This document shows positions 16,594 to 61,416 of a stretch of 64,000 bases of DNA, in pieces. The notes beneath the pieces were generated by a model. It was not told where the DNA came from and did no database searches. It saw nothing but the letters and a program-made list of their open reading frames with translations. The stretch is from Candidatus Omnitrophota bacterium (GTDB taxonomy: Bacteria; Omnitrophota; Omnitrophia; Omnitrophales; JACROU01): positions 237,126 to 301,125 of the forward strand of contig JAJDCD010000023.1 in NCBI GenBank assembly GCA_029261035.1, given 5' to 3'. The position numbers and the translations under genes are program-made. How positions within the stretch are numbered: position 1 is the stretch's first letter; every line of letters begins with the position of its first letter.

Positions 16594-17820
16594 TTATGCT
16601 TGTGCGAAAACTTCTCTAGCAACAATGCCGACAACACCAAGCGCAACAGAGTTTTCTCCAAAAGCAGAAGGGATAATTTTTACATAATTTGCGGATTCTT
16701 CTACAGCCCATTCTTTCACTTCTTGCTTTACAGCTTCCATGAAAATGCCACCGCAGTCCTCAATCCCCCCACCAATGACAACAATTTCAGGGTTTAGAAG
16801 GTTTACAAGAAATGCAATTTTTCGTCCAAGGTTACGACCCCCTTCTTGAATAACTTCTTGTGCAACAGGGTCATTTTCTTTAAAAGCTTGGAGAACTTCT
16901 TTGACAGAAATTTTGTCTGGGTCTCCACCGGCGAGATCTAAAATCCTAGAGCTTTTCCCTTTGGAAATAATTTCTCTTGCAGCGTTTGCCATTCCCAAAT
17001 CCATTTCCCAGCGACCTAATTGGGAAGCAGCAGACGGGGTTTCTTCAGAAGTGTACTTTGGATTTTGAGAAGCGATTCCAAGCTCTCCTGCGGCACCTGT
17101 AGCACCACGAAAAATTTCTCCATTAATCATGATTCCACAACCAACACCAGAAAACATATAAACCATGTGTTTTACATCTCTATCCAAACCTAACCACTTT
17201 TCTCCTAATACAGCTGCATTAGCATCATTTTCAACAAAGGTTGGAATATTCAAACGCTTTTCAAAAAGATCTTTAATAGAAATGCAAATAGAAACATCTT
17301 TTGTTCCTAAAGCTCCGGGCCAACGAATTGTTCTTCCACGCTCATCAATAATTCCAGGGATTGCAACGCCAAGTCCAGCAATTTTATCTTTGTCTACATC
17401 TGATTTTTCTATAATTTCTTCCGCGAGAAGAATAAGCTCTTCCATCATGGATTCAGAGTTCTCTGGTTTTCTTTCTTTTTTAACTTCATAAATCACGTTG
17501 GTCTCTAAATCAACAAGAACGCCTACCATAGATAGCATGTTCAAACCGATACCAATGATATAAGCCGATTTTGGGTTGAGCTCTACTAGAACAGGTTTGC
17601 GACCGCCTGTGGATTCATCTAACTCACCTTCTACAACGAGGCTTTTTTTGATGTAATGGTTTACATAGTTGGAAACCGTTACAATATTAAATTCTGTGAT
17701 TTTGGAGATATCTGTACGAGAAATGGGGCCGTTCTTACGAATCACTTCTAAAATAGCTAAATTTTTTCTTTCTTTATCCGTTAACGTCCGATCTTTTAAA
17801 AGAGTTTGTTTAATGAGCAT
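16594..17820 (-). CDS. ROK-family transcriptional regulator / sugar kinase
   Basis: 408 aa. N-terminal winged-helix (LAILEVIRKNGPISRTDISKITEFNIVTVSNYV) plus a ROK sugar-kinase fold with Gly-rich motifs. Confidence 0.8.
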   Translation of the reverse strand: MLIKQTLLKDRTLTDKERKNLAILEVIRKNGPISRTDISKITEFNIVTVSNYVNHYIKKSLVVEGELDESTGGRKPVLVELNPKSAYIIGIGLNMLSMVGVLVDLETNVIYEVKKERKPENSESMMEELILLAEEIIEKSDVDKDKIAGLGVAIPGIIDERGRTIRWPGALGTKDVSICISIKDLFEKRLNIPTFVENDANAAVLGEKWLGLDRDVKHMVYMFSGVGCGIMINGEIFRGATGAAGELGIASQNPKYTSEETPSAASQLGRWEMDLGMANAAREIISKGKSSRILDLAGGDPDKISVKEVLQAFKENDPVAQEVIQEGGRNLGRKIAFLVNLLNPEIVVIGGGIEDCGGIFMEAVKQEVKEWAVEESANYVKIIPSAFGENSVALGVVGIVAREVFAQA

Positions 17821-18085
17821 GTTGTTTTTCCTCCGAATGGGATTGACCGTTTATAGGCCTTTTTGGCTCTTAAATGTTACATTTCAAAGCCTTTAGTTGA
17901 GCAAAATGTACCACGTCTGTTTGCCCGTAAAAACACGCAAAATATAGCAGATTTATTATTTATTTGCAAGGACTTATGAAAATTTGAGAAGAACTCTTTT
18001 TAGGGCTTTTTTTAAAGATAAGAAAGGCAGTTATTAAAGCATGTTAATAAAGGAGTTATGAAAAGTCGAATCGGAACTCTTTTTC

Positions 18086-20047: not shown

Positions 20048-20123
20048 AGATCAAGTTTTCTCTTAGATTAAAAAAATGGGAAGCAGAAAACGCGTTTCCG
20101 CTTCCCATTAGGAATGTGTTGCT

Positions 20124-22568: not shown

Positions 22569-22601
22569 GGGATTAAAAAACTCCTTTTATCTATTTTATT
22601 T

Positions 22602-23921
22602 TTATTTGTCTTTATCTTTGGCAAGAACAGCGTCTATCCTTGGAACTACTTTACCAACAACAACTTCGACGGTTTCTTTGCCATTAAACATAAGGTCGAA
22701 ACCTTCATTAATATACTTACTTTCTATTTCTCTCCATTTTGGATGAAACGGATCGTAAGTTACGTACTTTACTGCTTTGTTCAACATACCTTTATTGAGC
22801 GGTGGGTTGGAATCCCCTGCCCAATCAGGCCCTTTAGCTATTGCTTGTAAAGCCGGTTGAGCCAGCCCACGTTTTGCTAATTCTTTTTGTCCTGTTGCAC
22901 CTGTTAGTGCTTTTACTACTTCCCAAGCAGCTTCTTTATTCTTAGAACTTTTCAAAATACAATAACCGGAACCGCCTGTACCAAAACCCCGAAGGCCTTT
23001 TGCATTTTTGGGAAACATAGCAACATCCCAATTAAAATCTCTTTTTCTCAAAGAAGGAGTTTCCCAAACGCCCGAAAGAAACATTCCCAATCTTCCCGTT
23101 GTAAACATCGTGTCTACACCCATCCCTGAATTGGTTAAAGCAACAGGTGTTGGCATTACTTTATGTTTGTTAATAAGGTCTACATAAAACTGGAGACCTT
23201 CAATGCTTTCAGGCGAATTCAAAATAGATCTTGTTGGGTTCTTCACATTATCTACAAGACCGCCGCCGTTACCATAAACAAAATTTTTCCAAGCCCAGCC
23301 ATAAAAACCGTATTGAGTGATGCGGCCATTTTCTCTTTTGGTCAAAGCTTGTGCTTTTTCTAACATATCTTGCCATGTCCAATCATCTGTTGGGTACGAC
23401 AAACCTTCTTGATCAAACAAATCCTTGTTGTAAAACACACAAGCAAATGGAGCGGTGTCTCTTGGAATGGCCAAGATTTCCTCATTTACTGTGAACCGGT
23501 CTAAAACCTCTGGAAAAAAAGTAGATGTTTTAAATGTAGAATCATTTTCAATAAAAGGATTTAAATTTTCTAAAACATTTTTACTCGCAAAACTTACAAA
23601 ATAATTTACTTCGGTACAAATAATATCAGGAGCTGCACCTCCAGCAATACGGGTTAAGATCTTGCTAACATATCCTCCATAAGGTGTATGCTCAAAACGT
23701 ACTTTAATGTCTGGGTGCAACACTTGCCAATCACTAATCGAATTCGTGATGATGTCAATTTCATCGGGGCTACCCCAAAAAGCAACTTTAACTAGTGTCT
23801 TTCCATCGTCTTCTGCGTTAGAACCACTACAGCCTGTTACAAAAAGAAAACTCAAACACATTATACAAACAAAAAATTTTGATGCCAAAGAACGTTCAAA
23901 GCGCTTTCGAACTACTTCCAT
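22602..23921 (-). CDS. ABC transporter substrate-binding lipoprotein (carbohydrate family)
   Basis: 439 aa. Lipobox LFVTGCSG and a periplasmic-binding-protein cluster 1-like sequence. Confidence 0.7.
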   Translation of the reverse strand: MEVVRKRFERSLASKFFVCIMCLSFLFVTGCSGSNAEDDGKTLVKVAFWGSPDEIDIITNSISDWQVLHPDIKVRFEHTPYGGYVSKILTRIAGGAAPDIICTEVNYFVSFASKNVLENLNPFIENDSTFKTSTFFPEVLDRFTVNEEILAIPRDTAPFACVFYNKDLFDQEGLSYPTDDWTWQDMLEKAQALTKRENGRITQYGFYGWAWKNFVYGNGGGLVDNVKNPTRSILNSPESIEGLQFYVDLINKHKVMPTPVALTNSGMGVDTMFTTGRLGMFLSGVWETPSLRKRDFNWDVAMFPKNAKGLRGFGTGGSGYCILKSSKNKEAAWEVVKALTGATGQKELAKRGLAQPALQAIAKGPDWAGDSNPPLNKGMLNKAVKYVTYDPFHPKWREIESKYINEGFDLMFNGKETVEVVVGKVVPRIDAVLAKDKDK

Positions 23922-29081: not shown

Positions 29082-30071
29082 ATGAGTGCAGAAACACAAA
29101 AAGCATCTTCAATCAAAGAATTTATTAAGAATAACTATCGTCACTTTAATTCCGCTGTTGTGGTAGACGCATCAGAAGCTTGGATTGATTTGCTTAATCA
29201 AGGTGGAAAAATGTTTCTGACTATGGCAGGAGCTATGAGTACGGCAGAGCTTGGCATTTCACTTGCAGAACTGATTCGACAAGATAAGGTTCATGGAATT
29301 TGCACGACAGGGGCTAATTTAGAGGAAGACGTTTTTAATTTAGTGGCGCATGATTACTATAAAAGAGTTCCTGGATATAGACATTTAACAGCAGAACAAG
29401 AACTTGAACTGTGTGCCCAAGGCTTGAATAGAGTGACAGATACCTGCATTCCAGAAGAAGAAGCGATGCGTCGAATAGAAAAACGGGTTTTGAAATTATG
29501 GAAAAAAGCCGAAGCAGAGGGAAAGCGCTATTTTCCATATGAATATATGTACCAATTACTGGACCAAGAAGATTTGGTAGATATTTTTCAAATAGACCCT
29601 AAAGATTCTTGGCTGATTGCGGCTAAAGAAAAAAATCTCCCCATCTTTACTCCAGGCTGGGAAGATTCTACATTGGGAAATATTTTTGTTTCTAACTTTC
29701 AAAGAAAAAAAATTAACTCCTTACAATTAGTGAAGTCGGGGTTGGAGCAAATGGATGTGTTGATCGGCTGGTATAAAGAAATGACCAAAGATAAGCTTTT
29801 AGGTTTTTTTCAAATTGGAGGGGGCATTGCTGGCGACTTTCCTATTTGTGTGGTTCCTTTAATACAACAAGACCTTAAAGAGGAGTGTCGTTTGTGGGGT
29901 TACTTTTGTCAGATTAGTGACAGCACCACTTCTTATGGTTCTTATAGCGGAGCGGTTCCAAACGAAAAAATTACTTGGGGGAAATTGGATAAAGATACTC
30001 CAAGTTTTATTATCGAATCCGATGCCACGATCGTGGCACCTCTTATTTTTAATTATGTTCTAGGAAATTAA
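29082..30071 (+). CDS. Deoxyhypusine synthase-like protein
   Basis: 329 aa. The N-terminal region is consistent with a DHS-like NAD-binding fold (AVVVDASEAWIDLL, TMAGAMSTAELG, GICTTGANLEEDV). Confidence 0.7.
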   Translation: MSAETQKASSIKEFIKNNYRHFNSAVVVDASEAWIDLLNQGGKMFLTMAGAMSTAELGISLAELIRQDKVHGICTTGANLEEDVFNLVAHDYYKRVPGYRHLTAEQELELCAQGLNRVTDTCIPEEEAMRRIEKRVLKLWKKAEAEGKRYFPYEYMYQLLDQEDLVDIFQIDPKDSWLIAAKEKNLPIFTPGWEDSTLGNIFVSNFQRKKINSLQLVKSGLEQMDVLIGWYKEMTKDKLLGFFQIGGGIAGDFPICVVPLIQQDLKEECRLWGYFCQISDSTTSYGSYSGAVPNEKITWGKLDKDTPSFIIESDATIVAPLIFNYVLGN

Positions 30072-34339: not shown

Positions 34340-37300
34340 GTGTTTTCTAATTTTATGATCAAGTTCAAAAAACCGATCGCTTTTTTTACTTTTTTACTTT
34401 TTACGATGAATACGTTTGCTTATGCTGCGCCGGAAATCTCTTTGTCTTCTTTAAAGGCTAAAGACAATATTCTTCTCCCATTAAATATTCAAATACCAGA
34501 AACCTTAGGCGTCGTTGAAGAAGAAATTTTAGGTTCTGGCCCTATAGTTATTCATATAGAAGATGCTCATGCAGATTACCAAGCCCAGAAAAACATACAA
34601 GCAATTATTGAACACTTAGAAAAGACCCAAGATTTTAACCAGCTTTTTCTTGAGGGTGGAGCAGGAGAATTGACCCCCGAAAGCTTTCATTTCTTTGAAG
34701 AACATTCGTTAAATCAAAAGGTTGTCGATGACTTAATGCAACAAGGCTTGTTTTCGGGAGCCGAAGCGTTCTTGGTCGATAATACTGAGACAGCCCAAGG
34801 TTTCGGCATTGAGGACATTGATACGTATCGAAAGAACTTACAACAATTTCGAGAAGTGATTCAAACAAAAGAAACGCATGTTTGGACTGAAGAACAAAAA
34901 CAAATCCTTTCCACTCAAATTTCAAAAACATTCCCCAAAGAATTAAGAGAGATTGTTTCTCTTAGACAGAAGCTCGACCTAAATCAAATATCACTGTTAA
35001 GTTATGTAAACCTTTTGAATCATTTAGTAAAAAAACATCTTTCCATCGATTTACAAGACAAGAAACATCAATGGGATTACCCCTCTTTAGTTCGACTTGT
35101 TCGACTTAAGGAGATGAAAACAACAAACCTCGAACAAATCCAATCAGAAAAGAAAGCGTGGCTCGAAAAACTTGAAGAGCTTAACTTAGATAACGAATTG
35201 ATGGAAAAGCTAGAGAATATAGAAAAACAAAAATTCCCAAGATTTGTCTTAGAACAACTGCACCAAGCAAAGGGAGGGAAGCTTTCTTTAGAGGATTTCC
35301 CAGCATGGAAAAATTATCTTCAACAATTAATGTATCAAACAGAAGTTGATAGCAAAGGGTTGTTTCAGGAAATAGAGAGCCTTTCAGGGAAACTCTATAA
35401 GGGGTTAGTCCAAACACCAGCGCAACAAAGTCTTCTTAAAAAGATAAAGAGTTTTCATCTTTTCGAAAAGCTTCTCTTGCTCGAGCTTACCCGAGAGGAG
35501 TATGGGAAACTTAAGATAGAAAATCTAGATGTTATGTTACCTGAAGAAATTGAAACTGTGTTGGAAGGGGCAAAATCTTTTTATAGGGAGGCTATAAAAA
35601 GAGAATTCTTTTTCACTCAAAATTTATTATCTCAAATGAAAGAAAATAAAAACCCAAAATCTATTTTAGTTACAGGAGGGTTTCATTCTGAAGGAATAAA
35701 AAAGAAAATAAGGGAATTAAATTTCTCTTATGTCCGAATTCGCCCTCACGTAGGATCTTCCATTGAATCACGAAAAATTTATTTAAATACGTTGCTTGAA
35801 GAAAATAAAACAAAAATAGCTTCCATTGCTAACGTACTTCAGATTATGCCTGAAGCCACACAGCAAAAAATGGGCGTTTCTGTTAAGAGAAGATTTTTTG
35901 TTAATGCAGCAGTGAGCCGAGCAGCATCTTTGGGTGAGGAGGAGCTTCCCAAAATTCCTGGAGCCAAGATTTTGACTTTATCTTTAGGGGAGCTTGCGGA
36001 TTACCTTGCTGAGAATCTTGAATCTCAATTTGAAGAGGCTGGGCGCAATTTTAGAACAAAAAAACCCAATGCGGTTTTAGATAGTTTTGAAATTATGGCG
36101 AATGCCCGATTTATTGATGCGGACACGGTTCGATTTATTTCACAACCTAGATTAGCCACAGGAGAAGATGGGGCTATTGTTAATACATCCCATGGGTTGT
36201 TGTCCAACATCATAGGCTTGGAGCCTAATGACTTTCAATCTCATTGGATGCGATTGATATTTTATTTATATCCTAACGATAAAATAGTTATTAATTTTAT
36301 TCACAATGGGTTTGTGCGAGAGCTCATCAGAAAAAGAAATGCGCACAAGTCACAAAAAGAATTTGATTATGATTTATCCATACGGGATGAGTACATTAAA
36401 TTAGCTCGAGTCTTTGTCGAGGCGTTTCGAAAAACACCTTATGGTTCTTCTGAAGAAAAGATTGAAAGCGTAAGAATTATAGAAGCGATAGGGGTTCCTT
36501 GGTTTTCATCTGAAGAGCAAAGCACCATTAAAATAGGAAATCAGGTTTCCTTGTATCTGTTATCGCAGTTACAGCTTTTAAGTGAGAAAATTGAAGGGGC
36601 ATCTCTGGGAGAAACAAATCAAATAGAAAAGAGCACCTTCTTTCAAAAATTTTGGGAGGCTCCTCTGTGGTTTAAGGTTCCTGTCAGTGTGGGTGTCATT
36701 AGTACTGCAGCAGCCCTTCTTTTTGGTTTAGGCTTGCCGGAGGCTTTTAAAAATCCAATAGCTTCTTTTTTTAATAACATCACTATCTTTGGATTTTTTG
36801 TTGCACTTGCAGATATTTTAGGTCAATGGATTTCGGGGGCAAAATATAATTTAAAACAAACTTTTCTTTCTTTTTTTCCTTTGGGGTTAGCGTTAGGAAC
36901 AATGACTTTTGTAGGTTACGGAATTATTAATTACTTAGTTCCTCAAGACTCTCAACTGACGGTCTGGATTTGGGGCGTTTTGCTTAGTGTTAGCGCTTTA
37001 ATGGGCTTCAAGTTAGCCAATTTTTATAACAGTTTTAAGGAAGATGTGAGCCAACTTCAACATTGGGCTTTTCGTATTGCGGGTATCGCGTTCCCACTTA
37101 TTCTAATTTGGCACTATCTGCCACGCGAAGAACCTCTTCCTGAGTTTGTTGTGGGCATTGTGCGTGTGTTGGGAACTTGGGTTGTGATACGGAGTAGAAC
37201 GATTCCTTATGCCTGGCTTGTCAAAAGAGTCAGAAATCAAATTAAAAAAGAAGAAGCAACGACATCTGCAGATAAAGAGGACGCAAAAGAAGCCTTAGAT

Positions 37301-40300
37301 GCTCAAGAAAAACAATACGAATCTTTTTGGATGTCGCGAGTTCCTTCCTTCATTAAAAATTATGTTGTGATGATGTTTTTCCCTCCACATTTAGCAGTTA
37401 TTTTAGAAGGCATTGCTACGCAATATTTCCAATTGTTTTACTCTTGGTCTGTAAATAAAAAAGGATTCATGATTAAAAAGGAAAATCTAAGAGGAAACCG
37501 AATGTTTCTTTTCTTTTTAGGGTTTATTTGGTGGTTAGGTGTTCAGCGTTTTACAAAAACAGAAACTAAGAAAGAGCCAAAAGAAGAAATAGAAGCAAAA
37601 AGTTTAGGAGCGATTTCGGATAAAGATAACAAAATTACGCGCCTTAATTTCTATAAGAAAGTTCGCCCTTATTTAGCTTATCTTGCCAGAAAAAATGTTT
37701 CGGCACCTTTTGCTGCAAAGACACCGGATTTGTTCTTACTTTTAGGCCATGGAGACCCTAGAACTTTCTATGAATTTTCTGGAGTTTGGAGAGATGCCAG
37801 TTTGAAAGGGCATCAAGTTCCCATTGTGATTGCTGGCGGTAGGGGTAGGGGAACGGATCTGTTGGTTCAAAAAATTATGCTCTATGCCCAAGATAACAAA
37901 ATTCCTTTTACCGAAGAAGAGCGAGCGTTGATTCTTAAAAGCGATATTTCTGAAGCTGAGATCATTAAAATGGTTCTTGTGAAACAAGAGATTCCTGAAG
38001 AGTTAATCACTGTTGAAACAAAATCCACAAATACACCCGAAAACTTTGTTAACAGCCTTGCTTTTGTTAAGCAGCTTGTGGGCCAAGATGCGTTAATTCA
38101 AGTCGTAACAAATCCACCTCTTAATTTAAGAGCCCATCAAACAGGATTAAAAAAATGGGAAGATATCATTAAAAGTCAGTCGTGGCAGTTGCGCACAACG
38201 CCTGTTTACATGCCTCGTTTACAAAAAATGACAGAAGAGGACACTTTAGAGTTTATCGCTTATGTTTTAGGCTTACCTTCGGGTTATCAACCTAAGAATA
38301 CGTCTGTGAATCGTAAAAGTGAAACAGAGCGAATTGCAGAGTATGGAACAAAAGAAACCCCAGATCTAATTCCTCTAGATTTTTCCGAAACAGAATGGAG
38401 CTTAGATGCTGTAAGGGAATTAAGAGAAACACATTTCAGAGACTTTCTTCAGCAAAAAGGCGACGTTCCGAAAGACAAGTGGAGCAAAGGCATTTGGGCT
38501 CTTTTATTCTTTATTCCATCTTTCTTTATTGCTTTAGGGGTTGTCCCCGACTTTTTCTATAATGCGCGAGCGTTGTCCCCAACTTTTTACCTTCATGAAT
38601 TTTTGCATGGCAGTAATAGTTGGAATTTAGAAAACTTAAATATTCCTCTTTGGGCCAAAACAATGACTCATTGGGGCCCTATTTATTATGTGTTGTATGC
38701 GCTTGAATATGTTGCTCATGGTATTTCCGATGGACTTGTCTCTGTTTTTTCTTGGGCACTTTCTTTTTTTGGCATGGAAGAAGAAGGGGGTAAGCTTTCG
38801 TATATTATTCCAGATGCTGTTGATTTAATGATAGGTTTTACGGGCTTAAAAGTTGGACAAACACTATACTCTTTAAAGAATCAAACCCGCCTTTCGAGAT
38901 TTGGAATGTGGTCCAGCTTTACGGTTGCTTTTGGTTACTTTGCTTTTCACACACTCTATATTTTGCATGATGCCTTTCGCATCGGAGATTTTTCTAAAGT
39001 ACACCATCCTGAGAATGGAGACTACCGTATGTTTGCCAGCATTTTTTCTTCAGGTGCAGCGAGTCCAGGTCAAATATTTTTAACAGGCCTTTTCGTAGCA
39101 AGTTTTTCTTATCTTTTTGTTACTGCAGGCCATTGGCTTTTAAGTGGGATTAAAAACAGGTTACAACTAGGTTCTATTCGAGAGAGTTTTAGAAAAAGAG
39201 TAAGTGAAAAAATAATTTCTACTTACAAATCTACGGTTTTGGCTCTTTCCATTTTTATTGTTAGTTTTACAGCACTTTTAACAAGCGCAAGTTACTCCAC
39301 TCCCAAAATAACACCTGCTTCACCAGAGGTAAAAGAAACAGACCCAGAAAAATCCACCAAGAAAAGAGAACGCAAAGAGGACTATGTTGCCAACCCGGCA
39401 AAAGGAGATAGTTTAGGAAAGAGTATAGAAATAGCTCGAAGCGCCTCTAGACCGAACAGTGTAGAAGCGGCTTCTTTGGGATCTCAACAGGAAAAAATTG
39501 ATGAGAGAAGATTAAGAAGAGCTCAGCGAAGCCATAGACGATATAAAGATCCATTAGTATCTTTGATTCATATGGTGGTTACAGCGGATCAGAATCGTTT
39601 ACTTATGGTTAAGTCGGTGGAAGGGGCTCGTTGGTCGTTGTTGGAAGGGGCTCCTGTTCTTGGTGAAACTGTTTTTGAGGCTTCTAAGAGAATTCTACCT
39701 CTCTGGATTAATATGGCAGCCCAAACAACGAAGGCAATTGGGATTGTTTCTGACCCAGAACTTCATGATGTTTATGTTTATTCTCCTGTTATGAAAGTTG
39801 TTTTAAGGGATCAACAGCTTTTAAAAGATTCGAATCAGTTTTTTGATGCTCGTTTATTTTCCCGAGAAGAATTAAAGTCTATTTATCTTAAAATGTTTGT
39901 AAACCCAAATCATCGAAGCCTTGTTGAGGCTTTTGTTAATGATCCTCAGCTATCACATATCCCTGTTAAAGCAGAAAGTTTAAAATTTGCTGATCCGGAC
40001 AAACGTTTAATTGAAACGCCTTCTTTTGACCAAGCTAAAGCTAGAAGAACCAAAGAAGAACATAATTACCATATAGAGCAGGGGAAAACACAACACAATT
40101 TAACATCGGTTGGATTGGTGGAGGTAACGAAGCCAAACGGAGAATATTTAGGAGTTATGCTTCAACAAATTAAAAAAGGAGCATATAAAGGGCAGTGGTC
40201 TTTAAGTGGAGGGCATCCCTCTCATGGTGAAAGTGCTGTTTATGCGGGCATGCGAGAGATATATGAGGAAACTAGTTTGGTTGCAACCAAGCCGCACTTT

Positions 40301-42235
40301 TTAGGCATTTTGCCTCCAAGTTATCCTGGTAGTCCTGAAAGTTACATTCAATCTTTATATAGTTTTCAAGCAAAAGGTTATCCTAACCCTGATAATAAAG
40401 AAGTTTCCGCCATTGCTTTTGTTAAGAATTTTGAAGAGCTCAATGAGTTTGCGCGAAATAATATACTTGCGTGGAGTGTGTATGGGACCGTAGCTAAATT
40501 TCTATTAGAAAAAGAAGGTGTAAAACTACCGGAAGAAATAACAACATTAGTGAAATCCCTTTTTTCAAAATATGCGTTTGATTCAAAGCGACTTCACTCG
40601 GTAACTCTTGCATTAACTTACTTAATTCCAGAAATTATTAAAACACAGCTGCAGAATGTTAACTTAGAGAACTCGAATTTTATTTTAAGTTCTATGTTCC
40701 ATTATTACTTATCCAAGATGTTGCTAGACACACTACAAAGTAACCCCCGGTTTGAAGCAGGCGCGTTGCTGCGATTTATGCAATTGGGCGATCAAGATAT
40801 ATATGACCCTAAAGCTTCTGGCGGAGGAGCGTACTTTACACAGGAGATTCCCGAAGAATTTAAAGCGGCGTATGAGAAGCAAGAACAAGAAAATGGACGA
40901 TTATTAGCAGATAAATGGTTGTTAGAAGAAAAAGGGATTTTTTGTTTTAGAAAGAAACAAGGTGAGGAGATGCGTTATGAAACTTGGTATTGGAGAGTGA
41001 ATCCTTGGAACGATGGAGCAACTTTAAAATTAGAGGATGAGGAGTATCAAGGGTTAGAGGCTCTATCCTTAACGTTGCAACAAGCAACTCATTTTGTTCT
41101 TAATGATCGCAATGCCAATGGCTTTTTACTCATAGACCCAAAAAGTCCTTTAGCTCAAATCGCAGAGGCTTCAAGAGAGGAGAGCAACTCTGCTGCTATT
41201 GAAGGGAGACCCGTACTTCCATCGGAATATTTGGTTCCAGAACTTCAACTATTATTAGGCGAACAGGTTCAAGATATGAATGAAACCTTAGATGCAATGG
41301 CAGAAGAAATGCTCCAATTTCTAGGAAAATCAATTTTACCTTCTACGCATGAAAACTTAAAACAACGCTTGCGACTCGAACTCTTTAAAATTTTATATGT
41401 AACACAAATGGCGGAGATCTCTCACCTCGAAACTGTTGGAGCAGCTTCTCTAGGTAGTATAAAAGAAAGAGAAGTAGACGCTATTATTTATGTGACAGAA
41501 ACTGTTGCCGGAGGGATTTATTATTTACCAGAGGCAGATCAAACACTTCTTGTGTTGTTTAAAGAAAATGCTAAGGATGGAAAGACAGAAATAAAAACTT
41601 CATCTGCTGTAAATGCTTTTAATAGGGATATAACGCCGGTTTTGAATCTAGTACCACAAAATGTAAGGGGCCCTCAATCCAGACTGCCGCTCATTGTTTT
41701 TGATGATGTTCTTAAGAAGAGAAAAGAAACGGCACGTCAAATGGCGCATCAACTTTCTTCCGCGCTAAAGCCAGGCGACTTATTTGTAGCTGTTTGGGAG
41801 GGAGACGATAAACCTTCAGTGCTGAGCCAGCTTTATCGAGAAGCAAATACATCCGAGTTTCAGGTGCGGGATATTCCAAAAGCGCTTATTTCTGAAGCGC
41901 GTGTTCAGTCTTTGACGCGAAAAATAGAAACAGCTCCTGTGGCAATTAGTTCGTTATACGATACTTCAGATTTAGAACTGGAATTGCGAGGAGGCGATAA
42001 AATTAAATTAGATTTAAGCTCATTAATTGAAAAGGGGGTTAACCCGATTCAAGTCGTGAAATTAATTCGAGCGCTTTCAGATAATTTAGAAGCCCGAAAG
42101 GTGCTTTTTGAACGTATTGGATTTAAGTGGAACGAAAAAGAAGGTTTTTGGACCGTTGGAAAAGACTTTACTCAATTCCTCGAAACAATCTACACACAAT
42201 CTCTCACACAACAGCTAGTCCTTCAAGCAGCTTAG
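34340..42235 (+). CDS. Giant secreted/membrane protein of 2631 aa. It has an N-terminal domain shared with the second giant protein, two polytopic TM blocks, an embedded Nudix hydrolase motif and recurring A[AS]SLG motifs.
   Basis: Uninterrupted 7.9-kb ORF in AT-rich DNA. Signal peptide MIKFKKPIAFFTFLLFTMNTFAYA. N-terminal domain residues ~60-480 are homologous to the 43433 protein. Hydrophobic helices occur at residues ~770-900 and ~1380-1640. Nudix box GGHPSHGESAVYAGMREIYEETSL at nt ~40207-40275. An RBS-like AAAGGTG lies upstream. Confidence 0.9.
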   Translation: MFSNFMIKFKKPIAFFTFLLFTMNTFAYAAPEISLSSLKAKDNILLPLNIQIPETLGVVEEEILGSGPIVIHIEDAHADYQAQKNIQAIIEHLEKTQDFNQLFLEGGAGELTPESFHFFEEHSLNQKVVDDLMQQGLFSGAEAFLVDNTETAQGFGIEDIDTYRKNLQQFREVIQTKETHVWTEEQKQILSTQISKTFPKELREIVSLRQKLDLNQISLLSYVNLLNHLVKKHLSIDLQDKKHQWDYPSLVRLVRLKEMKTTNLEQIQSEKKAWLEKLEELNLDNELMEKLENIEKQKFPRFVLEQLHQAKGGKLSLEDFPAWKNYLQQLMYQTEVDSKGLFQEIESLSGKLYKGLVQTPAQQSLLKKIKSFHLFEKLLLLELTREEYGKLKIENLDVMLPEEIETVLEGAKSFYREAIKREFFFTQNLLSQMKENKNPKSILVTGGFHSEGIKKKIRELNFSYVRIRPHVGSSIESRKIYLNTLLEENKTKIASIANVLQIMPEATQQKMGVSVKRRFFVNAAVSRAASLGEEELPKIPGAKILTLSLGELADYLAENLESQFEEAGRNFRTKKPNAVLDSFEIMANARFIDADTVRFISQPRLATGEDGAIVNTSHGLLSNIIGLEPNDFQSHWMRLIFYLYPNDKIVINFIHNGFVRELIRKRNAHKSQKEFDYDLSIRDEYIKLARVFVEAFRKTPYGSSEEKIESVRIIEAIGVPWFSSEEQSTIKIGNQVSLYLLSQLQLLSEKIEGASLGETNQIEKSTFFQKFWEAPLWFKVPVSVGVISTAAALLFGLGLPEAFKNPIASFFNNITIFGFFVALADILGQWISGAKYNLKQTFLSFFPLGLALGTMTFVGYGIINYLVPQDSQLTVWIWGVLLSVSALMGFKLANFYNSFKEDVSQLQHWAFRIAGIAFPLILIWHYLPREEPLPEFVVGIVRVLGTWVVIRSRTIPYAWLVKRVRNQIKKEEATTSADKEDAKEALDAQEKQYESFWMSRVPSFIKNYVVMMFFPPHLAVILEGIATQYFQLFYSWSVNKKGFMIKKENLRGNRMFLFFLGFIWWLGVQRFTKTETKKEPKEEIEAKSLGAISDKDNKITRLNFYKKVRPYLAYLARKNVSAPFAAKTPDLFLLLGHGDPRTFYEFSGVWRDASLKGHQVPIVIAGGRGRGTDLLVQKIMLYAQDNKIPFTEEERALILKSDISEAEIIKMVLVKQEIPEELITVETKSTNTPENFVNSLAFVKQLVGQDALIQVVTNPPLNLRAHQTGLKKWEDIIKSQSWQLRTTPVYMPRLQKMTEEDTLEFIAYVLGLPSGYQPKNTSVNRKSETERIAEYGTKETPDLIPLDFSETEWSLDAVRELRETHFRDFLQQKGDVPKDKWSKGIWALLFFIPSFFIALGVVPDFFYNARALSPTFYLHEFLHGSNSWNLENLNIPLWAKTMTHWGPIYYVLYALEYVAHGISDGLVSVFSWALSFFGMEEEGGKLSYIIPDAVDLMIGFTGLKVGQTLYSLKNQTRLSRFGMWSSFTVAFGYFAFHTLYILHDAFRIGDFSKVHHPENGDYRMFASIFSSGAASPGQIFLTGLFVASFSYLFVTAGHWLLSGIKNRLQLGSIRESFRKRVSEKIISTYKSTVLALSIFIVSFTALLTSASYSTPKITPASPEVKETDPEKSTKKRERKEDYVANPAKGDSLGKSIEIARSASRPNSVEAASLGSQQEKIDERRLRRAQRSHRRYKDPLVSLIHMVVTADQNRLLMVKSVEGARWSLLEGAPVLGETVFEASKRILPLWINMAAQTTKAIGIVSDPELHDVYVYSPVMKVVLRDQQLLKDSNQFFDARLFSREELKSIYLKMFVNPNHRSLVEAFVNDPQLSHIPVKAESLKFADPDKRLIETPSFDQAKARRTKEEHNYHIEQGKTQHNLTSVGLVEVTKPNGEYLGVMLQQIKKGAYKGQWSLSGGHPSHGESAVYAGMREIYEETSLVATKPHFLGILPPSYPGSPESYIQSLYSFQAKGYPNPDNKEVSAIAFVKNFEELNEFARNNILAWSVYGTVAKFLLEKEGVKLPEEITTLVKSLFSKYAFDSKRLHSVTLALTYLIPEIIKTQLQNVNLENSNFILSSMFHYYLSKMLLDTLQSNPRFEAGALLRFMQLGDQDIYDPKASGGGAYFTQEIPEEFKAAYEKQEQENGRLLADKWLLEEKGIFCFRKKQGEEMRYETWYWRVNPWNDGATLKLEDEEYQGLEALSLTLQQATHFVLNDRNANGFLLIDPKSPLAQIAEASREESNSAAIEGRPVLPSEYLVPELQLLLGEQVQDMNETLDAMAEEMLQFLGKSILPSTHENLKQRLRLELFKILYVTQMAEISHLETVGAASLGSIKEREVDAIIYVTETVAGGIYYLPEADQTLLVLFKENAKDGKTEIKTSSAVNAFNRDITPVLNLVPQNVRGPQSRLPLIVFDDVLKKRKETARQMAHQLSSALKPGDLFVAVWEGDDKPSVLSQLYREANTSEFQVRDIPKALISEARVQSLTRKIETAPVAISSLYDTSDLELELRGGDKIKLDLSSLIEKGVNPIQVVKLIRALSDNLEARKVLFERIGFKWNEKEGFWTVGKDFTQFLETIYTQSLTQQLVLQAA

Positions 42236-55400: not shown

Positions 55401-57073
55401 CACATAGCTTTTTAAAGCTTATAAGAAAAAATCTTGCGATTAAAAAGAAGAGAATGGATTTACTTCAATATAAAGCAGCTGTTTATGGTTCTGAAGATGA
55501 AGCTCTGTTGAGAAAGCTTTGGGAAGAGTCTGGTTTTAAAATTGTGTCTTTAGAACCTTTGAAAGAGAACGAGCAAGATATTGATTACCCTCTTCCTGAG
55601 AGTGCATTAAAAACATATGGATGGAAAGTAAGGGTTGTCAAAGAGAGAACCTTGTCTCAGCGTAGTGAGGCAATAGAAGCCATCAAATTGCCATCAGATC
55701 AGTTGCGTAACAAGGATAAATCTTTGGTTTTGTCGCCTGAAACAAGGGCTATGCTAGAAATTCCTTATAAAGAAAAACGAGTTTCTAAAAAAGAGATCCA
55801 AAAAATGCTAGCTCAACGGGAATTTTTTAAAGATGCACGTGTGTTTGAATATATAGAACGGTATTTTGACAATCCGTCACGTGAAAGGAAGCACGACTTA
55901 GAAATTGTTCTTAGCCGAATTAATAATTTAGTTGGCTTAGCGTTTAGAACAAAAGGAATGGATGGTGAAGAAGACTTGTTGAGAGTAGAGGACTTAATGG
56001 CTGTTCAGAGAGTCTTAAACCAAGTTTTTTTTGGTAAAGGAATCAAACAAAAAAAGAACAGAAAAAAATGGCAAGCCCTCAAAGGGCAACTTCAAATGAA
56101 GTATGGGATCTATCAACTTATTCTTAACCATCAGACCTTAAGTACTCCTATTCACGAAAGGCTTCAAGGTTTATTGAAAAAATTTGATGTTATTTCAGAG
56201 ATTGAGGTAGATGAAGATAGAGAGGTCTTACGAATAAAAGCGAAAATCGAGAGAGAGTTTGTTTCTTCAAACGCTGAAAGTTTGGGAAGACAAGCCGTTG
56301 TGGGCTTTTATGATCTTAATCAACAGTTGGGTGGGGGAACCCGTCTCGGGTTTGACCGGGTTACCTATGAACTGACAAAAGGCCTTTTATCTCCGGTTCT
56401 TCGTTTAGATAGAGAGACTTATGATGAGGCGTATTCTTCTCTTTTTCCTGAAGAAATTTTAGAGAGTTTTAGTTTGCCTAAAGACAAACTAGATCAAATG
56501 GGTCTTTGGGGAAGAGTTTTAGCGGCAGGACAAGAAGGGCCCTCAAGGCATGTGTTTGACTATAGGAGTTTGCCAAAAAATATTGAAAGTCTAGATGCAT
56601 TGATTCTTTATTTGTTGCAACACAAAAAATTAACCTACACCTTACTAACGATAGCGCCTATCGAAGAAGTTAGAGAGTTTAAATTATTATTAAAAAAATA
56701 TATTTCGGATAAATATCAAACCAGTTTAGGTGAACGTTTTAATTTACAAGGGGTCCATTCAGAAAAGGAATTGAAAGCTTCTGTTCATAAACTTGTTTCT
56801 GATAATCAAAAGAGTGCTTTAGCTTTTGTATCTGAGGATGCAGAACAATCTTGGGTTGGTTTTACACGTAATAATTTGTTACAAGTAGCTGGATCTAAAG
56901 ATGCCTCCACTCAAAATGCTTCTGTTATTGTTGCAGCTCAAAAATTATTAGAACCTTTACCAACGCATCTTTTTTGGGAAGTTCAAAAACCAGAAGATTT
57001 AACAACGACTTTTATTTGGAATGAATTACTGATTCGATTTCAAGCAGATACAATGCTTCGAATTGCGGCTTAA
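43433..57073 (+). CDS. Giant secreted protein of 4546 aa. It has an N-terminal domain paralogous to the 34340 protein, two class I SAM-methyltransferase-like domains, two internal tandem repeat arrays and recurring A[AS]SLG motifs.
   Basis: Uninterrupted 13.6-kb ORF. The likely true start is the in-frame TTG at 43484, giving MKFLYKTRRFLSSLVLFTFLFSLIQV...ANA/AT as signal peptide. MTase motif I-like LDLGTGNFHA (nt ~47452) and VDTGTGAYTA (nt ~54661), each followed by a GTD strand. A basic KRKRKRRR patch at nt ~54415-54440. Confidence 0.9.
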   Translation: MLFFLKSFILFQERPTRLKFLYKTRRFLSSLVLFTFLFSLIQVSDLKNANAATIVPQSPLFVFDFDLPRNLGELTHISPKVLLDPTSDEPLFFHIQSSHRHYETETNIKEILRFLTKEYDIKHIFLEGGAYRLHPENFQFFPEDPEMNKKVVQTLLQKGELTGAEAFLIESEQNVSGWGLEDAKLYKENRDLFKKIIKLQPQAQTYLDFLILELNSINSVVLNNTLKKWLQQKKRHKEQTTPLSERLRYLKKQAKKQLDLDLSTPISQNLFPTLVRYFQLEKSLKEFNLEHWKKEKDLFLHELKKMELEPNLAKEIHSFLDKTPGFLKENYGYDSKTSQIFSLPKLRFVFERLYDALPEDFDIKRFPSVAQYIQIEILKDEVKGKQMFQEIKILEEKVLSSLIQTPEEKEHINLLEEITRLKKLIRLELTREEYNRYFDNSSQQNKPEHILDSTHQTISQTIKNKKTSLDILKQKLLETGIFDLTLSFYRAAIDREEAMTNKLLKHAKEVLKEKTIFITGGFHSEIFESTLKKNNLNYVQISPHMGDGSDFSEETYLKASLGKSFIETAHKEAPLRTDPLLLSELNDPMFLADIKAVVDETVLEVSGKSLGGLYDKDKTKTVGEVSFTGDVEKDFHQITEWFQTIFSNQEDVDLFLKQNYIVYGKRGEGWILRIEKNSDHTLSFDFEGVLMGGLNTPTLAKYQFVFDYQESSVQLFVYANWLLDLPYISDDQLILKKKIYFNSEELSSLKFENNKFYIEVPEKVRQQLWNLEILERFEKEGVASEHLQLVSEAQGIVLPKSGDVMPSMASSLGKAKSVDPEELAQRILTSKRFIIRKGAIDRLTGIASQMVFNLPEGKEAETQRRAFDILARLSVPQEEGEEVLPTEVYELLHLALAHIALQRTLPYSTEALEQLKNNLLSSNISEERFFKSVTNAFWNIIYLDARKEHGYRKDFILEVLSFIESTILSKSPQLRSLVYPLLFEFLKRLAYEVGNQTKSSEHFGVVTAPILNKIFDIYKHVFSTPNFEKKVYKDAVIHSFLHIYWGVKGDYSPLPLMQRRIDDFQPVVNFIQDAWNESREEERRNGIKDLYDNFVQYQDEGSASSLGNAHRPPFSFKNGIFRLNWNYPGKADVYPWAPKERGSFAEALNYWYGRAIFFTVDEREPLHYEEAITERLSSAVGDFEKIYRGLAAYPQLRLSNVLIQRNLDKPTAEVVEMIKPLIFDAAKAFGEAPESRAFRVDRKADHDSLMVLYHNAEQFVDTVTPFYRAHQSKASSLGLRPVEEKKVSTFDRFPTDKDYWDLFWKEAKLSSSSVNGDYPPSISGFLERFFSKLPNNFKSGLDLGTGNFHALRKAREHFDSRAMTPILIGTDFAQPGMSPPEGVVFRKVAGEHLSDLLIDDELDLQHIEAIFGVHSLLYMNVEGTLRQMNAVMPMGGQIGFVLHHAESTYVFSEKYYLEMLLLLERLDLFATLRQFIKDPRPKTLRVVYKKTKVLIDIILQKQEEDRAFSDSPTGKMIGELIGLSSYVTQQVLSDWLKNSSYAHKVPEFSTPFDMIYMMEFLSLDEMEGFREEGLDDYIYEVMSQYKKLKVELNQTHTEYLERIEGRFYGRKKKAALLKEAAIYGMQHKDELMDLFKRNGFEVEVEELHDTQSNGRSLLGWGVTGTKISEAMEKKPVLKRVNSEMPKLDFDEIKMKIPDFNDDFFESVQNQLEQLELLERIGFLKAAYAILQDPSNLWAQNTLNHAVYILDLYAHFISGMKKFIGDYAFFNPSTILSLYYQTLKGLETRLLPGELLDHILWIQSQIRMNQIEKVLLRRILELRPEEKVRRPGKIVQRALSELGYELTLFGQTSFSKDNTYWEIEIEKTTAASLGRLRSMTTHRVFSKEEKELKTNEIVPAASLGQVRNQKSVLIDRIRAGYEKLKEEEKVEIGDISLLVDKKEGRFYKTFPHPGGKNKGSREPVRLGANIEELELRLLREEEAIVLEFIYTKKGKKGVAKLYWTGKKYETEYERKVREMREAFKNLEEEKVVAVGDVSLLVNKSQGKLQHGFPTPNGNTLNKLQPIGTGMKGARQETVASSLGVQLNKEMLIMKIREGFRDLEVGNTKMVSIGDVSLLVDKKRGRFYQTFPTPDGGTVERGQGIGAGKGIKDIYLKMIKEEQEIVLEFWFKKGNSETEDRVKFYWNGKEYKQEKDRKKKELIKRIKKGFKKAKKGQSTEIGDVSLLVNKKYGRLQSVFPMPNGEKVAGIGLSFGAKLNLKKISLKIQNEEGQIVLKFLYRVKGKKEQETAKLYWNGKKYETEEKKKSSNKEQKELIKKIRKGFKDLESGKSEAIEVGDVSLLIKKKRGLFKGSFPTPNGGKVGASQALGTSGNLSEIFLTIRKEGNQIVLEFRYTKMISNTGDRKEKIVGKERLYWNGTKYLNKFNTGERKKREERLIKQIRNGFKSLKLGRKQEVEIEDISLLIYKKYGTLKPIFPTPDGGQVRKGYPFGGTKHIKEIALRIKKEEGQIVLEFFYKIEGEEKKSVRKVYWHEGKYESEVGRKKREIHEGFKNLQSGEKEKIEIEDISLLVNMRHGVFKPDFPTPDGGRIGKSRGMGVGKNLKAISLRASKVKGKIVLEYFYKTKGSKKEKFAKVYWFEGKYEVEIDRKRREIREGFQKLQLGEQEEIEIGDVSLLVNKRYGNFQMTFPTPDGSQVGRVGAIGIGKNLKEVTLTIRKENGEIILVFFSKTKGSKKEKQTKLYWYEEKYESETDRKRREIREGFQKLQLGEQEEIEIGDVNLLVNKKAGNFKFRFPTPDGGQVGKQYAIGMGGDSIEIDLKIKREKETGKILLEFRYQKQGRATFEKVPVTLAWNPTTKTYEPYVPETQQDVYEFDLDTEGFSLGRQMLEVGSQKMPKAKGYELTAIEASSLGEQQALEEAWKAFQLQRPQLIAKIEAWKAGKRGEETARQLRDQIYKIERADLIAWDLDKYMHKKSSQKVFSGYKELLIALFSDLQLNPLGFQLDFVKKPLESIRFRFAQKVPSVMERYARVETLSEEEKDLLREEVYEIDSSRLKEWQLERVLHRKEVPLFDGDYRQVLILSLPDLKLNPLGFGLDFTTLEKALESMRFIFEKEILEILKRYEQLKGLSELKVEQLREEIYAIRGRHLTAWGLEGLGDRSAAPYFKGSTFNALNTFFSELNLNSLDYELDWSSPEQATASVHHVFNKEFPELMERYRRFEELSFSQQNRLRDEFYQFTQNQMQALNLRAATQEYFQNTHAIAMQAIFPKLELNVLGFSLDWSSPEQARASLRFVFQRHIPSIMERYEKIDQLDAEMIERLRRDIYHNISNAHFRLWKIQNLIRTKVLGENYLEVLDVFFNDPRLGFSILGMRQYRKQNTTTKYQWKDLQQAKTSIKEAMRENMPELVDQYEAWESLSLFEQNNLRDDFYAITAGHIAVWGLNSALNNRAVPFFKGKIFNVLNETFPNLKLNPLGFALDYTTTDRALESIRYVLSKKKPKVIEEYDRRHELSQDEIEALKEKIYQINSRSLLLWGLRGAFSKKESPQFEGSYVRALQTFFSGLELNPLRFRTDFTTEENAINSVLSKFERYKPQLFSKYQSIEDLTEEEVETLREQIYRIQPEQLKLWGLRGAFSYFKGGYRAILMAVFNHSRLNLEKESFKRKRKRRRISESGRIPTVGLNVQTDEESSASSLGEDMSDTEVWKYGFKTVKGSAEYNPELKKAIREFFRALKGSNPDKLKIISVDTGTGAYTAINEARNYLEEQGWLHRFELVGTDIFEPEEKAPKGVRFEKVATESLSDSFALESLDGVMSVRSLLYTDVKDSLFVLNQVLKVGGEGLFILHHKYSEILAFDRDFQEQVDILKGLKLFAHLETFVKQPNYRNLRQLLIVRKIISNAIHERKTRKDFPHILNREIGLLQKFQAAIDYSVYLVLRDGLKKKITTKEIDEVLSFLEVPTNMEEEFLPYFNDLMTLYIRQYSGFDVQTYEHSAHSFLKLIRKNLAIKKKRMDLLQYKAAVYGSEDEALLRKLWEESGFKIVSLEPLKENEQDIDYPLPESALKTYGWKVRVVKERTLSQRSEAIEAIKLPSDQLRNKDKSLVLSPETRAMLEIPYKEKRVSKKEIQKMLAQREFFKDARVFEYIERYFDNPSRERKHDLEIVLSRINNLVGLAFRTKGMDGEEDLLRVEDLMAVQRVLNQVFFGKGIKQKKNRKKWQALKGQLQMKYGIYQLILNHQTLSTPIHERLQGLLKKFDVISEIEVDEDREVLRIKAKIEREFVSSNAESLGRQAVVGFYDLNQQLGGGTRLGFDRVTYELTKGLLSPVLRLDRETYDEAYSSLFPEEILESFSLPKDKLDQMGLWGRVLAAGQEGPSRHVFDYRSLPKNIESLDALILYLLQHKKLTYTLLTIAPIEEVREFKLLLKKYISDKYQTSLGERFNLQGVHSEKELKASVHKLVSDNQKSALAFVSEDAEQSWVGFTRNNLLQVAGSKDASTQNASVIVAAQKLLEPLPTHLFWEVQKPEDLTTTFIWNELLIRFQADTMLRIAA
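49160..52020 (+). repeat. Internal tandem array 1 in the giant gene: about 9 units of ~105 aa (~315 nt)
   Basis: Recurring unit ...REGF+.L+.GE.EEIEIGDVSLLVNKK.G.F...FPTPDGG.VG......G......L.I+KE.G.IVLEF.Y+.KG.....+.YW.G.KYE.E.DRK+REI. The GD[IV]SLL core recurs 9 times. Units are divergent at nucleotide level but conserved in protein sequence. Confidence 0.8.
52270..54410 (+). repeat. Internal tandem array 2 in the giant gene: about 7 units of ~90 aa (~275 nt)
   Basis: Recurring unit F..L.LNPLGF.LD+.....A..S.RF.F.K..P...E+Y....LS..E...LR.E.Y.I....L..WGL. Cores are LNPLGFQLDF, LNPLGFGLDF, LNSLDYELDW, LNVLGFSLDW, LNPLGFALDY and LNPLRFRTDF. Confidence 0.75.
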
Positions 57074-61214: not shown

Positions 61215-61233
61215 TTGTTGATCATGATCGTCT

Positions 61234-61272
61234 GAGATTGCCGCGACTCACTGGTTTTAGTCTCGCAATGAC
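61234..61272 (-). repeat. Module C repeat in inverted orientation, immediately after the stop of the 59517 gene
   Basis: gagattgccgcgactcactggttttagtctcgcaatgac is the reverse complement of GTCATTGCGAGACTAAAACCAGTGAGTCGCGGCAATCTC. Confidence 0.55.
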
Positions 61273-61416
61273 GTTTGTCCTAATCCCTTAGGCAGAGGAA
61301 GCTCTTTGCTAAAGGCCTCTTTTTGCCCCCAATCCTCCTATGTGTTAGGCTTCTTTAAAGAGGTCTGTACTGTTCTTTGAAACGAGTTTAAACGCATAAA
61401 AAGGGAGGTTCGTCCT

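Follow-up and report, generated by a model that had tools for sequence, protein, structure and literature searches.

A tandem Nudix cassette in a modular giant protein of a Candidatus Omnitrophota bacterium, and short peptide motifs that may punctuate a polyprotein

Introduction

ORF1 is an open reading frame of 2631 amino acids (aa), read from a GTG at nucleotide (nt) positions 34340..42235 (+) of a 64,000-nt stretch, termed here the window, from a Candidatus Omnitrophota bacterium (contig JAJDCD010000023.1, positions 237,126–301,125; assembly GCA_029261035.1). The translated sequence carries a Nudix hydrolase domain, which is the second half of a tandem cassette that begins with a degenerate Nudix domain. 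ORF1 as a whole is probably a modular giant, in which a signal-like N-terminus, a TIKI/erythromycin-esterase (Ere)-like module, two membrane blocks, a DUF218 domain, the Nudix cassette and a C-terminal module follow each other with the short motif [AG]xSLG between units. On balance, the Nudix tandem is likely to be one cargo unit of this giant, which may act in the manner of a polyprotein.

The locus, which also encodes a paralogous giant termed ORF2, represents a small, tractable version (2.6 and 4.5 thousand aa) of the giant proteins of the Omnitrophota. It exposes three testable features: a TIKI/Ere-type head, punctuation peptides that bracket enzymes, and a portable cassette that is found both free and embedded. 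The literature leaves open whether and where the giants are cut, and the motifs make this directly testable. If the polyprotein interpretation is true, these ultra-small bacteria would make, export or deliver some of their proteome as shuffled cassettes, and the motifs would supply the cleavage points that papers on Omnitrophota giant proteins call missing.

The Nudix box and its domain

The Nudix box of ORF1, GHPSHGESAVYAGMREIYEETSL, was located by a pattern match at aa positions 1958–1980 (G1958–L1980; nt 40211..40279, +). Its catalytic residues (G1958, E1964, R1972, E1973, E1976 and E1977) are all at the correct spacing. The strict pattern G-x5-E-x7-R-E-U-x-E-E-x-[GS]-U displays one match in the six-frame translation of the window, compared with 1.4e-5 expected from composition. 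An earlier note on this DNA had pointed to a near-perfect Nudix signature in a giant protein and had named a mismatch in catalytic-residue spacing as grounds for dropping it. The signature is borne out and no such mismatch is seen. The peptide described there, GGHPSHGESAVYAGMREIYEETSL, is real and is encoded at nt 40208–40279 (+; aa positions 1957–1980), but the coordinates assigned to it (40207–40275) are shifted by one base relative to the reading frame and fall 4 nt short at the end, and their literal translation gives stops on both strands.

Judged from sequence profiles, the box belongs to a genuine Nudix hydrolase domain (termed d2, aa positions ~1920–2060). The Pfam NUDIX model (PF00293), a hidden Markov model whose use the earlier note had proposed, matches 113 residues of d2 (envelope aa 1922–2034; nt 40103..40441, +) at E = 1.8e-12, its 47.9 bits exceeding the gathering cutoff of 21.1, and spans model positions 4–118 of 134. 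Sequence searches of the PDB agree with this. With the single sequence, phmmer yields MTH1/NUDT1 (E = 1e-4), a MutT-like ADPRase and Ndx1, and all rows are Nudix proteins except two weak ones (E ~0.5–0.8). With a four-sequence profile, 77 Nudix chains are found at E<=1e-3 and every listed match is Nudix; the Aquifex protein 2yyh is the best match (1.8e-9), followed by 2fml, MutT and MTH1 (1e-4 to 1e-6). The d2 sequence displays the signature GGHPxxGE and has an identity of ~20–30% to solved Nudix hydrolases. In an alignment of four distant copies of the cassette, the G, E, RE and EE of the box are invariant in the relatives P0066, P0067 and P0069.

Thus d2 shares superfamily and catalytic box with small MutT/MTH1/COG1051-type Nudix hydrolases (2yyh, 2fml, MutT 4v14, MTH1/NUDT1, NUDT15 and Ndx1), but differs from them in being embedded in a 2631-aa chain, behind a dead Nudix-fold domain. 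Most likely d2 is an active pyrophosphohydrolase. No NCBIfam equivalog reaches its cutoff (the best, NudI, gives 16.1 bits vs. a cutoff of 95), and d2 is given neither a subfamily nor a substrate. The matches to MTH1 are weak (1e-4 with the single sequence, 2e-5 with the profile) and do not place d2 in the MutT/MTH1 8-oxo-dGTPase subfamily. A conserved Pro ~15–16 residues after the box is a mark of ADP-ribose pyrophosphatases. In the cassette alignment, ORF1 has P1995 at +15 and P0067 has a Pro at +16; the nearest in P0066 is at +21. A substrate assignment from downstream signature residues was dropped, as these residues are not conserved among the cassette copies.

A tandem of a degenerate and an intact Nudix domain

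The segment that precedes d2 is a degenerate Nudix-fold domain (termed d1, aa ~1735–1880; nt 39542..39979, +), detected by phmmer, BLAST, hhalign and profile searches. By these comparisons d1 and d2 form a tandem cassette of ~345 aa, with the box in its second half. The remnant of a box in d1, GAPVLGEtvfeaskRIlpLW (aa positions 1770–1789), has I, L and W in place of the three catalytic Glu residues. REIYEE of d2 corresponds to RILPLW in d1, with loss of REx2EE, and because of this replacement d1 appears to be a Nudix fold without catalytic glutamates. It matches ordinary Nudix proteins with phmmer, and its profile matches 2yyh (E = 1.9e-3). d1 and d2 align with each other in register (BLAST E = 0.002; hhalign E = 0.001, but with a probability of 21%). 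An AlphaFold2 (AF2) model of the cassette, searched with Foldseek, gives 346 Nudix matches in the PDB, probably via d1, the aligned domain not being given in the output. Many Nudix enzymes act as homodimers, so d1 may plausibly be a built-in partner of d2, i.e. one half of a pseudo-dimer.

With aa 1712–2369 as query, HMMER was run exhaustively against 1.8 billion cluster representatives and yielded 33 proteins at E<=1e-3, of which the best three match well beyond the Nudix core. P0066, a giant of 2436 aa, matches query residues 12–649 (E = 1e-46), P0067, a giant of 5531 aa, matches query residues 7–348 (E = 4.6e-39), and P0068 is a fragment with the d1 plus d2 cassette. The shared cassette opens with a conserved RAxxSH..Y.[DN]PL[ILV][ST][VL][IV], which is followed by d1. 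It should be noted that a word-indexed search with the same query gave no match at all, not even to its source (P0001, the database entry of ORF1), so that a negative result there does not mean absence; the full-length ORF1 query and the exhaustive search both recovered P0001. A word-indexed search with the cassette profile gave two small Nudix proteins only.

The cassette is also found outside giants. P0069 is a free-standing protein of 240 aa that shows the same dead-plus-live order as ORF1 and the same box (GxPEHGE...REIREE); it differs from the ORF1 cassette in standing alone and in having no signal peptide, and its gene sits between hisG and ribonucleotide reductase. The next-nearest relatives are tandem-Nudix proteins of ~300 aa. 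These likewise have two Nudix-fold domains per chain, but are free-standing and mostly have both boxes intact (eight of the nine checked, P0084 being the exception). No experimentally characterised member was found among these proteins, P0069 included. The simplest reading of these relationships is that a free-standing two-domain Nudix gene may have lost the activity of its first half and may then have been captured by giants.

Behind the cassette there are ~310 aa with no assigned function (aa positions 2060–2369; nt 40517..41446, +), which lie in the same inter-motif segment and are common to P0066 only (BLAST to query residue 649).

The candidate P0068 was also considered as a complete secreted tandem Nudix protein and was rejected, as its contig repeats itself at the 3′ end. 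At positions 3600–4172 of this contig (L082), a part of the gene (...NGYEEARFFPLSELA) appears a second time at the 3′ end, without inversion; the gene was probably cut short in this way by a misassembly.

Short motifs between the units

Copies of the tripeptide SLG punctuate ORF1. The first, raaSLG (aa 530–532; nt 35927..35935, +), is directly after the N-terminal module and is followed by a second copy at aa 548 (nt 35981–35989). egaSLG (aa 755; nt 36602..36610, +) is just before the first transmembrane block, and eakSLG (aa 1088; nt 37601..37609, +) comes next. A doublet, kgdSLG (aa 1691) and eaaSLG (aa 1712), at nt 39410..39481 (+), is immediately upstream of the Nudix cassette, and gaaSLG (aa 2370) opens the C-terminal module (nt 41447..42232, +). 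P0002 has a homologous C-terminus, and in either chain the aligned block begins with the motif. All were located by a motif scan. This [AG]xSLG-separated build, as well as the pseudo-Nudix/Nudix tandem, was missed in the earlier note.

SLG occurs seven times in ORF1 and 13 times in ORF2. The longer form [AG]xSLG is found six times in ORF1, compared with 0.15 expected (Poisson P ~1e-8), and 11 times in ORF2, compared with 0.21 (~1e-15). Both together give 17 copies vs. 0.36 expected, and none of 2000 shuffles shows more than three. A six-frame scan of the window for further open frames of at least 150 codons (~13,000 aa) finds a single copy in them. The codons of the motif vary, with both Ser codon families and five Leu codons in use; selection therefore acts on the peptide and not on the DNA. 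A role at the DNA level, e.g. as a recombination site, was rejected on the same ground. The flanks of the motifs are unconserved, and the first ORF1 motif (aa 530) is in the tail of the AF2 model of the N-terminal module, where pLDDT (the predicted local distance difference test score) is <50. Several copies form doublets 18–49 residues apart (nt 35927–35989 and 39410–39481 in ORF1; aa 560/609, 1871/1901 and 2881/2909 in ORF2), a spacing that would suit the removal of a short spacer peptide from between modules.

Relatives of ORF1 use other exact peptides: RSExR is present up to 19 times per protein, GFG[A] 10–11 times, and GARLA six times in one protein. Among the proteins with position lists, the first motif copy follows the N-terminal module, mostly within ~200 residues of its end (aa ~460–720), and comes later in P0023 (aa 760) and P0027 (aa 938). 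Complete enzymes are bracketed by the motifs. In P0018, PEPCK (aa 2185–2839) is between asSLG 2165 and anSLG 2845. In P0062, a receiver domain (1749–1831) is between RSExR 1724 and 1870 and NDK (1468–1590) is between 1445 and 1724; NadE of the same protein, a natural two-domain enzyme, is not split by motifs. In P0013, NUDIX (1021–1150) is followed by RSEMR 1183, and GNAT (1468–1555) is between 1375 and 1596. The Nudix cassette itself occupies positions 4120–4443 of P0067, between SLG 4101 and SLG 4449, and begins five residues past SLG 1712 in ORF1. BLAST comparisons also show that homology blocks among family members start or end at motifs. A full-text literature search for these peptides in connection with such giant proteins found nothing.

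The N-terminal head module

The N-terminus of ORF1 displays a signal-peptide-like sequence, MIKFKKPIAFFTFLLFTMNTFAYA followed by AP (nt 34355..34426, +), seen in the sequence and its hydropathy, with a Lys-rich n-region, a hydrophobic core and then A-Y-A. We infer cleavage by signal peptidase after A-Y-A. An N-terminal hydrophobic segment is present in 40 of 65 members of the family described below.

It is followed by a conserved module of ~480 aa (termed the head; nt 34472..35926, +), characterized by BLAST, alignment, AF2 and Foldseek, which is TIKI/erythromycin-esterase-like and has candidate catalytic residues E74, H77, E105 and H449. Invariant H, E-G and G-G-x-H columns are present in an alignment of 18 head sequences. 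The AF2 model of the head (pLDDT 81.5; pTM, the predicted TM-score, 0.72) gives as top Foldseek matches EreC (6xcs; probability 0.90, E = 0.013), the Ere-like BcR135 (2rad) and 3b55, with HopBA1 lower down. The only Pfam family matched by more than two of the 18 head members, although below its threshold, is PF04187.

The residues of the head reproduce a constellation of two His and two Glu: E74-x2-H77, E105 located 28 residues after H77, and the distal His of GGxH, H449. The first Glu (E74) is Gln in most relatives, where the consensus is IHIQDAH. In EreC the active site is E47/H50/E78/H289, with a His–Glu distance of 28 (PMC7979712), and the same distance is found in RRSP (E3900/H3902/E3930/H4030) and in Bcr135 (H85/E113) (PMC6254334). 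RRSP, an endopeptidase of the TIKI family that is sequence-specific and metal-independent, is found as one of the cassettes of a giant MARTX toxin (PMC6254334).

Probably the head is a member of the TIKI/Ere superfamily. It is similar to the TIKI/TraB/PrgY/ChaN/Ere proteins in its parallel-sheet core flanked by helices (AF2 model), in ExxH, in the E at +28 and in the distal GGxH. It differs in a helical insertion of ~270 residues between the halves of the core and in that all scores are below family thresholds. Several members of the superfamily are extracytoplasmic, which fits the signal-like N-terminus of ORF1.

A family of giant proteins with a common head

A search with whole ORF1 yielded at least 64 other proteins of 1.5–4.6 thousand aa, ORF2 included, from Omnitrophota, Elusimicrobiota and Chlamydiota metagenome-assembled genomes (MAGs) where the source is named. 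BLAST shows that the family shares ORF1 aa positions ~1–530 only, and always at the N-terminus of each member. Pfam identifies behind the head such cargo as glycogen phosphorylase, Glu dehydrogenase, enolase, hexokinase, NDK, kinases, GGDEF, macro and SecA-like domains, as well as the combinations isocitrate lyase + malate synthase + PEPCK and NUDIX + GNAT.

Between head and Nudix cassette, ORF1 has two hydrophobic blocks. Block 1 (aa positions 778–1069; nt 36671..37546, +) displays ~6–8 predicted transmembrane segments in Kyte-Doolittle scans, and block 2 (aa 1384–1650; nt 38489..39289, +), delimited by BLAST and hydropathy, is partly homologous to a block in P0003. Hydropathy predicts about ten or more hydrophobic segments in ORF1 overall; together with the signal-like N-terminus, this agrees with the secreted and polytopic look that the earlier note had attributed to the giant. 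A DUF218 domain (PF02698, E = 1.3e-8, 35.3 bits vs. a cutoff of 27.6) is at aa 1176–1268 (nt 37865..38143, +). It has a membrane block on either side and shares its inter-motif segment (aa 1088–1690) with block 2.

Nudix domains have been described in such proteins before. NUDIX is listed among the domains found consistently in the Omnitrophota "Archaeovorin" giants (West-Roberts et al., bioRxiv 10.1101/2023.11.21.568195) and is also present in the "multi-enzyme" metabolic-cluster class of giants (2026 preprint, 10.64898/2026.06.07.730766). Both preprints describe mosaics of enzyme domains with signal peptides, many transmembrane helices, N-terminal regions mostly without identifiable domains, and cleavage points that are unknown (10.1101/2023.11.21.568195; 10.64898/2026.06.07.730766). 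Because of these two descriptions, a Nudix domain in a giant is already known in kind and ORF1 adds one more example. The context that the earlier note called unusual is real, but is not a one-off.

ORF1 is similar to the Archaeovorin and multi-enzyme giants, compared here by their published descriptions, in its Omnitrophota host, its signal-like N-terminus, its many transmembrane segments and its enzyme mosaic with NUDIX, and proteolytic processing is suspected but unproven there, as it is for ORF1. It is much smaller: ORF1 (2631 aa) and ORF2 (4546 aa) fall below the size class of these giants (gene >90 kb, >30 thousand aa, or protein of at least 10 thousand aa). The preprints name C39 and S8 peptidases as candidate processors, whereas the head of ORF1 is TIKI/Ere-like and candidate sites are visible in the chain.

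Polyprotein or scaffold, and the site of action

Site-specific proteolysis of a polyprotein at the motifs would be the most economical explanation of their enrichment and placement. The chain would be cut at the [AG]xSLG motifs; the TIKI-like head itself, or a protease specific to the genome, may do the cutting. The freed Nudix cassette would then act as a separate Mg2+-dependent hydrolase of ~350–660 aa on a nucleoside-diphosphate-X compound, with d1 as pseudo-dimer partner. In its widest form the proposal counts ORF1, ORF2 and their relatives as true polyproteins of bacteria, in which an exported TIKI-like head or a genome-specific partner protease would cut at the lineage-specific [AG]xSLG, RSExR, GFG and GARLA peptides and would free complete enzymes (the Nudix tandem here; PEPCK, NDK, hexokinase and enolase in relatives). 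This wide form is offered tentatively, as a serious possibility that falls somewhat short of being probable.

MARTX toxins of Vibrio are a useful comparison. Like ORF1 they have a giant chain with variable, shuffled effector or enzyme cassettes and short sites between them. Export of the chain, and cuts at these sites, which an internal cysteine protease makes in MARTX, are putative in ORF1. The MARTX protease cuts after Leu and before a small residue, which resembles a cut between L and G of S-L-G. A Pfam scan of ORF1 and ORF2 shows neither Peptidase_C80 nor RTX repeats, and the cargo of the family consists of housekeeping-type enzymes, not known toxins; thus membership in MARTX is not claimed.

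Several observations weigh against the polyprotein interpretation or parts of it. The motifs, at which cleavage is putative, could instead be linkers, docking sites or modification sites. All four motif types looked for ([AG]xSLG, RSExR, GFG and GARLA; no systematic search was made for others) are absent from about half of the family. P0066 holds the cassette without punctuation, a candidate GFG punctuation in it having been rejected as a single copy. In the head tree the SLG and RSExR lineages are intermixed and there is no simple one-to-one co-evolution of head and motif; this interleaving fits a genome-specific specificity better than strict co-evolution. In ORF1 another 310 residues lie in the inter-motif segment of the Nudix cassette, and therefore a released unit, if any, would not be the bare tandem. 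As to the head, the TIKI/Ere assignment is weak: the Foldseek TM-scores are 0.18–0.23 (E = 0.013), low in part because of the ~270 helical residues inserted in the core. PF04187 (ChaN, "Tiki superfamily") is matched below threshold by four of 18 head members (best E = 1.1e-3), and the head profile gives spurious matches only against PDB sequences. As to d2, the last Gly of the box is Ser in ORF1, the sole deviation (G, A or G in the relatives), and the AF2 model of the cassette, built from four sequences, has a pLDDT of 49 overall, with ~75 for d1 and ~30 for d2. In the structure prediction, which the earlier note had suggested, d1 is thus the better modelled part, and the fold of d2 rests on the sequence profiles. 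The model does predict a helix over the box residues (model positions 255–267), within the low-confidence d2.

This low confidence is the one point in favor of a chance match to the box without a Nudix fold. The likelihood of such a match is negligible, as it is already refuted by the expected number of matches in the window, by the Pfam match over the length of the domain and by the 77 Nudix structures. It is also improbable that d2 is a ligand-binding or regulatory module of the NrtR type and not an enzyme. The clear inactivity of half of the cassette (d1) would be consistent with this, and members of the COG1051-type group, which presumably includes ADP-ribose-binding proteins such as 2fml and 2qjt, are among the closest solved relatives. 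The invariance of the catalytic residues of d2 across four distant copies argues for an enzyme, and the Pfam scan of ORF1 shows no DNA-binding domain after d2.

Another alternative is that the giant is an uncleaved, membrane-anchored multi-enzyme scaffold whose Nudix domain works in cis on the membrane, next to the other modules, with [AG]xSLG as flexible linkers or docking sites. In both preprints each giant is regarded as one membrane-associated chain, and cleavage sites were not found; the many hydrophobic segments of ORF1 are consistent with this, as is the result that neither ORF1 nor ORF2 has a dedicated protease domain at the Pfam threshold. For a plain linker, however, there would be no need of one exact tri- to pentapeptide, kept at 17 places amid unconserved flanks, and its replacement by another exact peptide in other lineages would be unexpected. 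The doublets, and the motifs set closely around complete enzymes, resemble processing sites with spacers, and the sole module common to the whole family carries a hydrolase-type His/Glu site. The scaffold is accordingly judged rather unlikely. That the giant, or a released cassette, is a secreted effector that acts outside the producer (in the periplasm, at a prey or host surface, or in another cell), a reading along the lines of the earlier note, is somewhat less doubtful, yet still unlikely. ORF1 has its signal-peptide-like N-terminus with A-Y-A. P0013 (Nudix + GNAT) and ORF2 have a hydrophobic segment at the N-terminus and lack internal transmembrane segments; export of the entire chain would follow from the classical rules. 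In the fragment P0068 a signal-like segment is directly ahead of the cassette. Secreted Nudix effectors are present in pathogens, e.g. RipN of Ralstonia and Avr3b of Phytophthora. A predatory role is proposed by West-Roberts et al., in whose predictions the giants have most of their domains outside the cell (10.1101/2023.11.21.568195). Against this, the cassette is also present in the signal-less P0069 among housekeeping genes, the giant P0066 shows no hydrophobic segment above a crude threshold, and the cargo of relatives (hexokinase, enolase, PEPCK, NDK and GNAT) needs cytoplasmic cofactors. The contig of P0068 is damaged at its 3′ end, and the topology predictions for ORF1 conflict.

A topology of ORF1 from hydropathy and the positive-inside rule was in fact abandoned: the rule gave conflicting answers, with Lys/Arg-rich sequence in each of three consecutive loops, and hydropathy gave an ambiguous count of spans. 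Such topology predictions for giants are called unreliable by West-Roberts et al. (10.1101/2023.11.21.568195).

The locus and neighboring genes

The NCBI protein P0001 is ORF1 (100% identity), annotated with 2626 aa from Met6 at nt 34355. The GyrB encoded in the window is closest to Ca. Omnitrophota MAGs (60–63% identity), with lower values to anything else and no match at the species level. The window, with dnaA, gyrB, gyrA, mnmG, yidC and rnpA, is the chromosome origin region. A single-protein search for the locus in GTDB representatives gave no match. Two further candidates were rejected for ORF1: a recent horizontal transfer of the Nudix cassette, as G+C content is flat (0.35–0.41) along ORF1, and internal promoters or terminators, whose counts equal the shuffle expectation.

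ORF2 (P0015; nt 43433..57073, +) has the same N-terminal module as ORF1. Its motifs (see above) divide the chain into 14 segments of 28–801 aa. No domain was matched in a Pfam scan of the whole chain, and hydropathy shows an N-terminal hydrophobic segment and no internal one.

Alone between ORF1 and ORF2, on the opposite strand (42735–43181, −), there is a type IV pilin-like gene with an N-terminal methylation motif and a ComP/DUS-receptor-like domain. Downstream of ORF2, at 57082–59064 (−), is a 660-aa DEAD-box helicase with a C-terminal DSHCT (NUC185) domain (E = 9e-30), the combination of the Ski2/Mtr4-type architecture, with which eukaryotes and archaea are mainly associated. It is followed at 59517–62547 (+) by a pair-like arrangement of neighboring genes that encode a DUF6178 protein (E = 4e-102) and a baeRF family 10 archaeo-eukaryotic release-factor-like protein. 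A deoxyhypusine synthase homologue (E = 9e-42) is present on this bacterial chromosome at 29082–30071 (+), beside a TPR protein. Near the origin region, at 16594–23921 (−), there is also a sugar-utilisation cluster that consists of a ROK kinase, a putative glucoamylase, a GH94 cellobiose/chitobiose-phosphorylase-like enzyme and a solute-binding protein.

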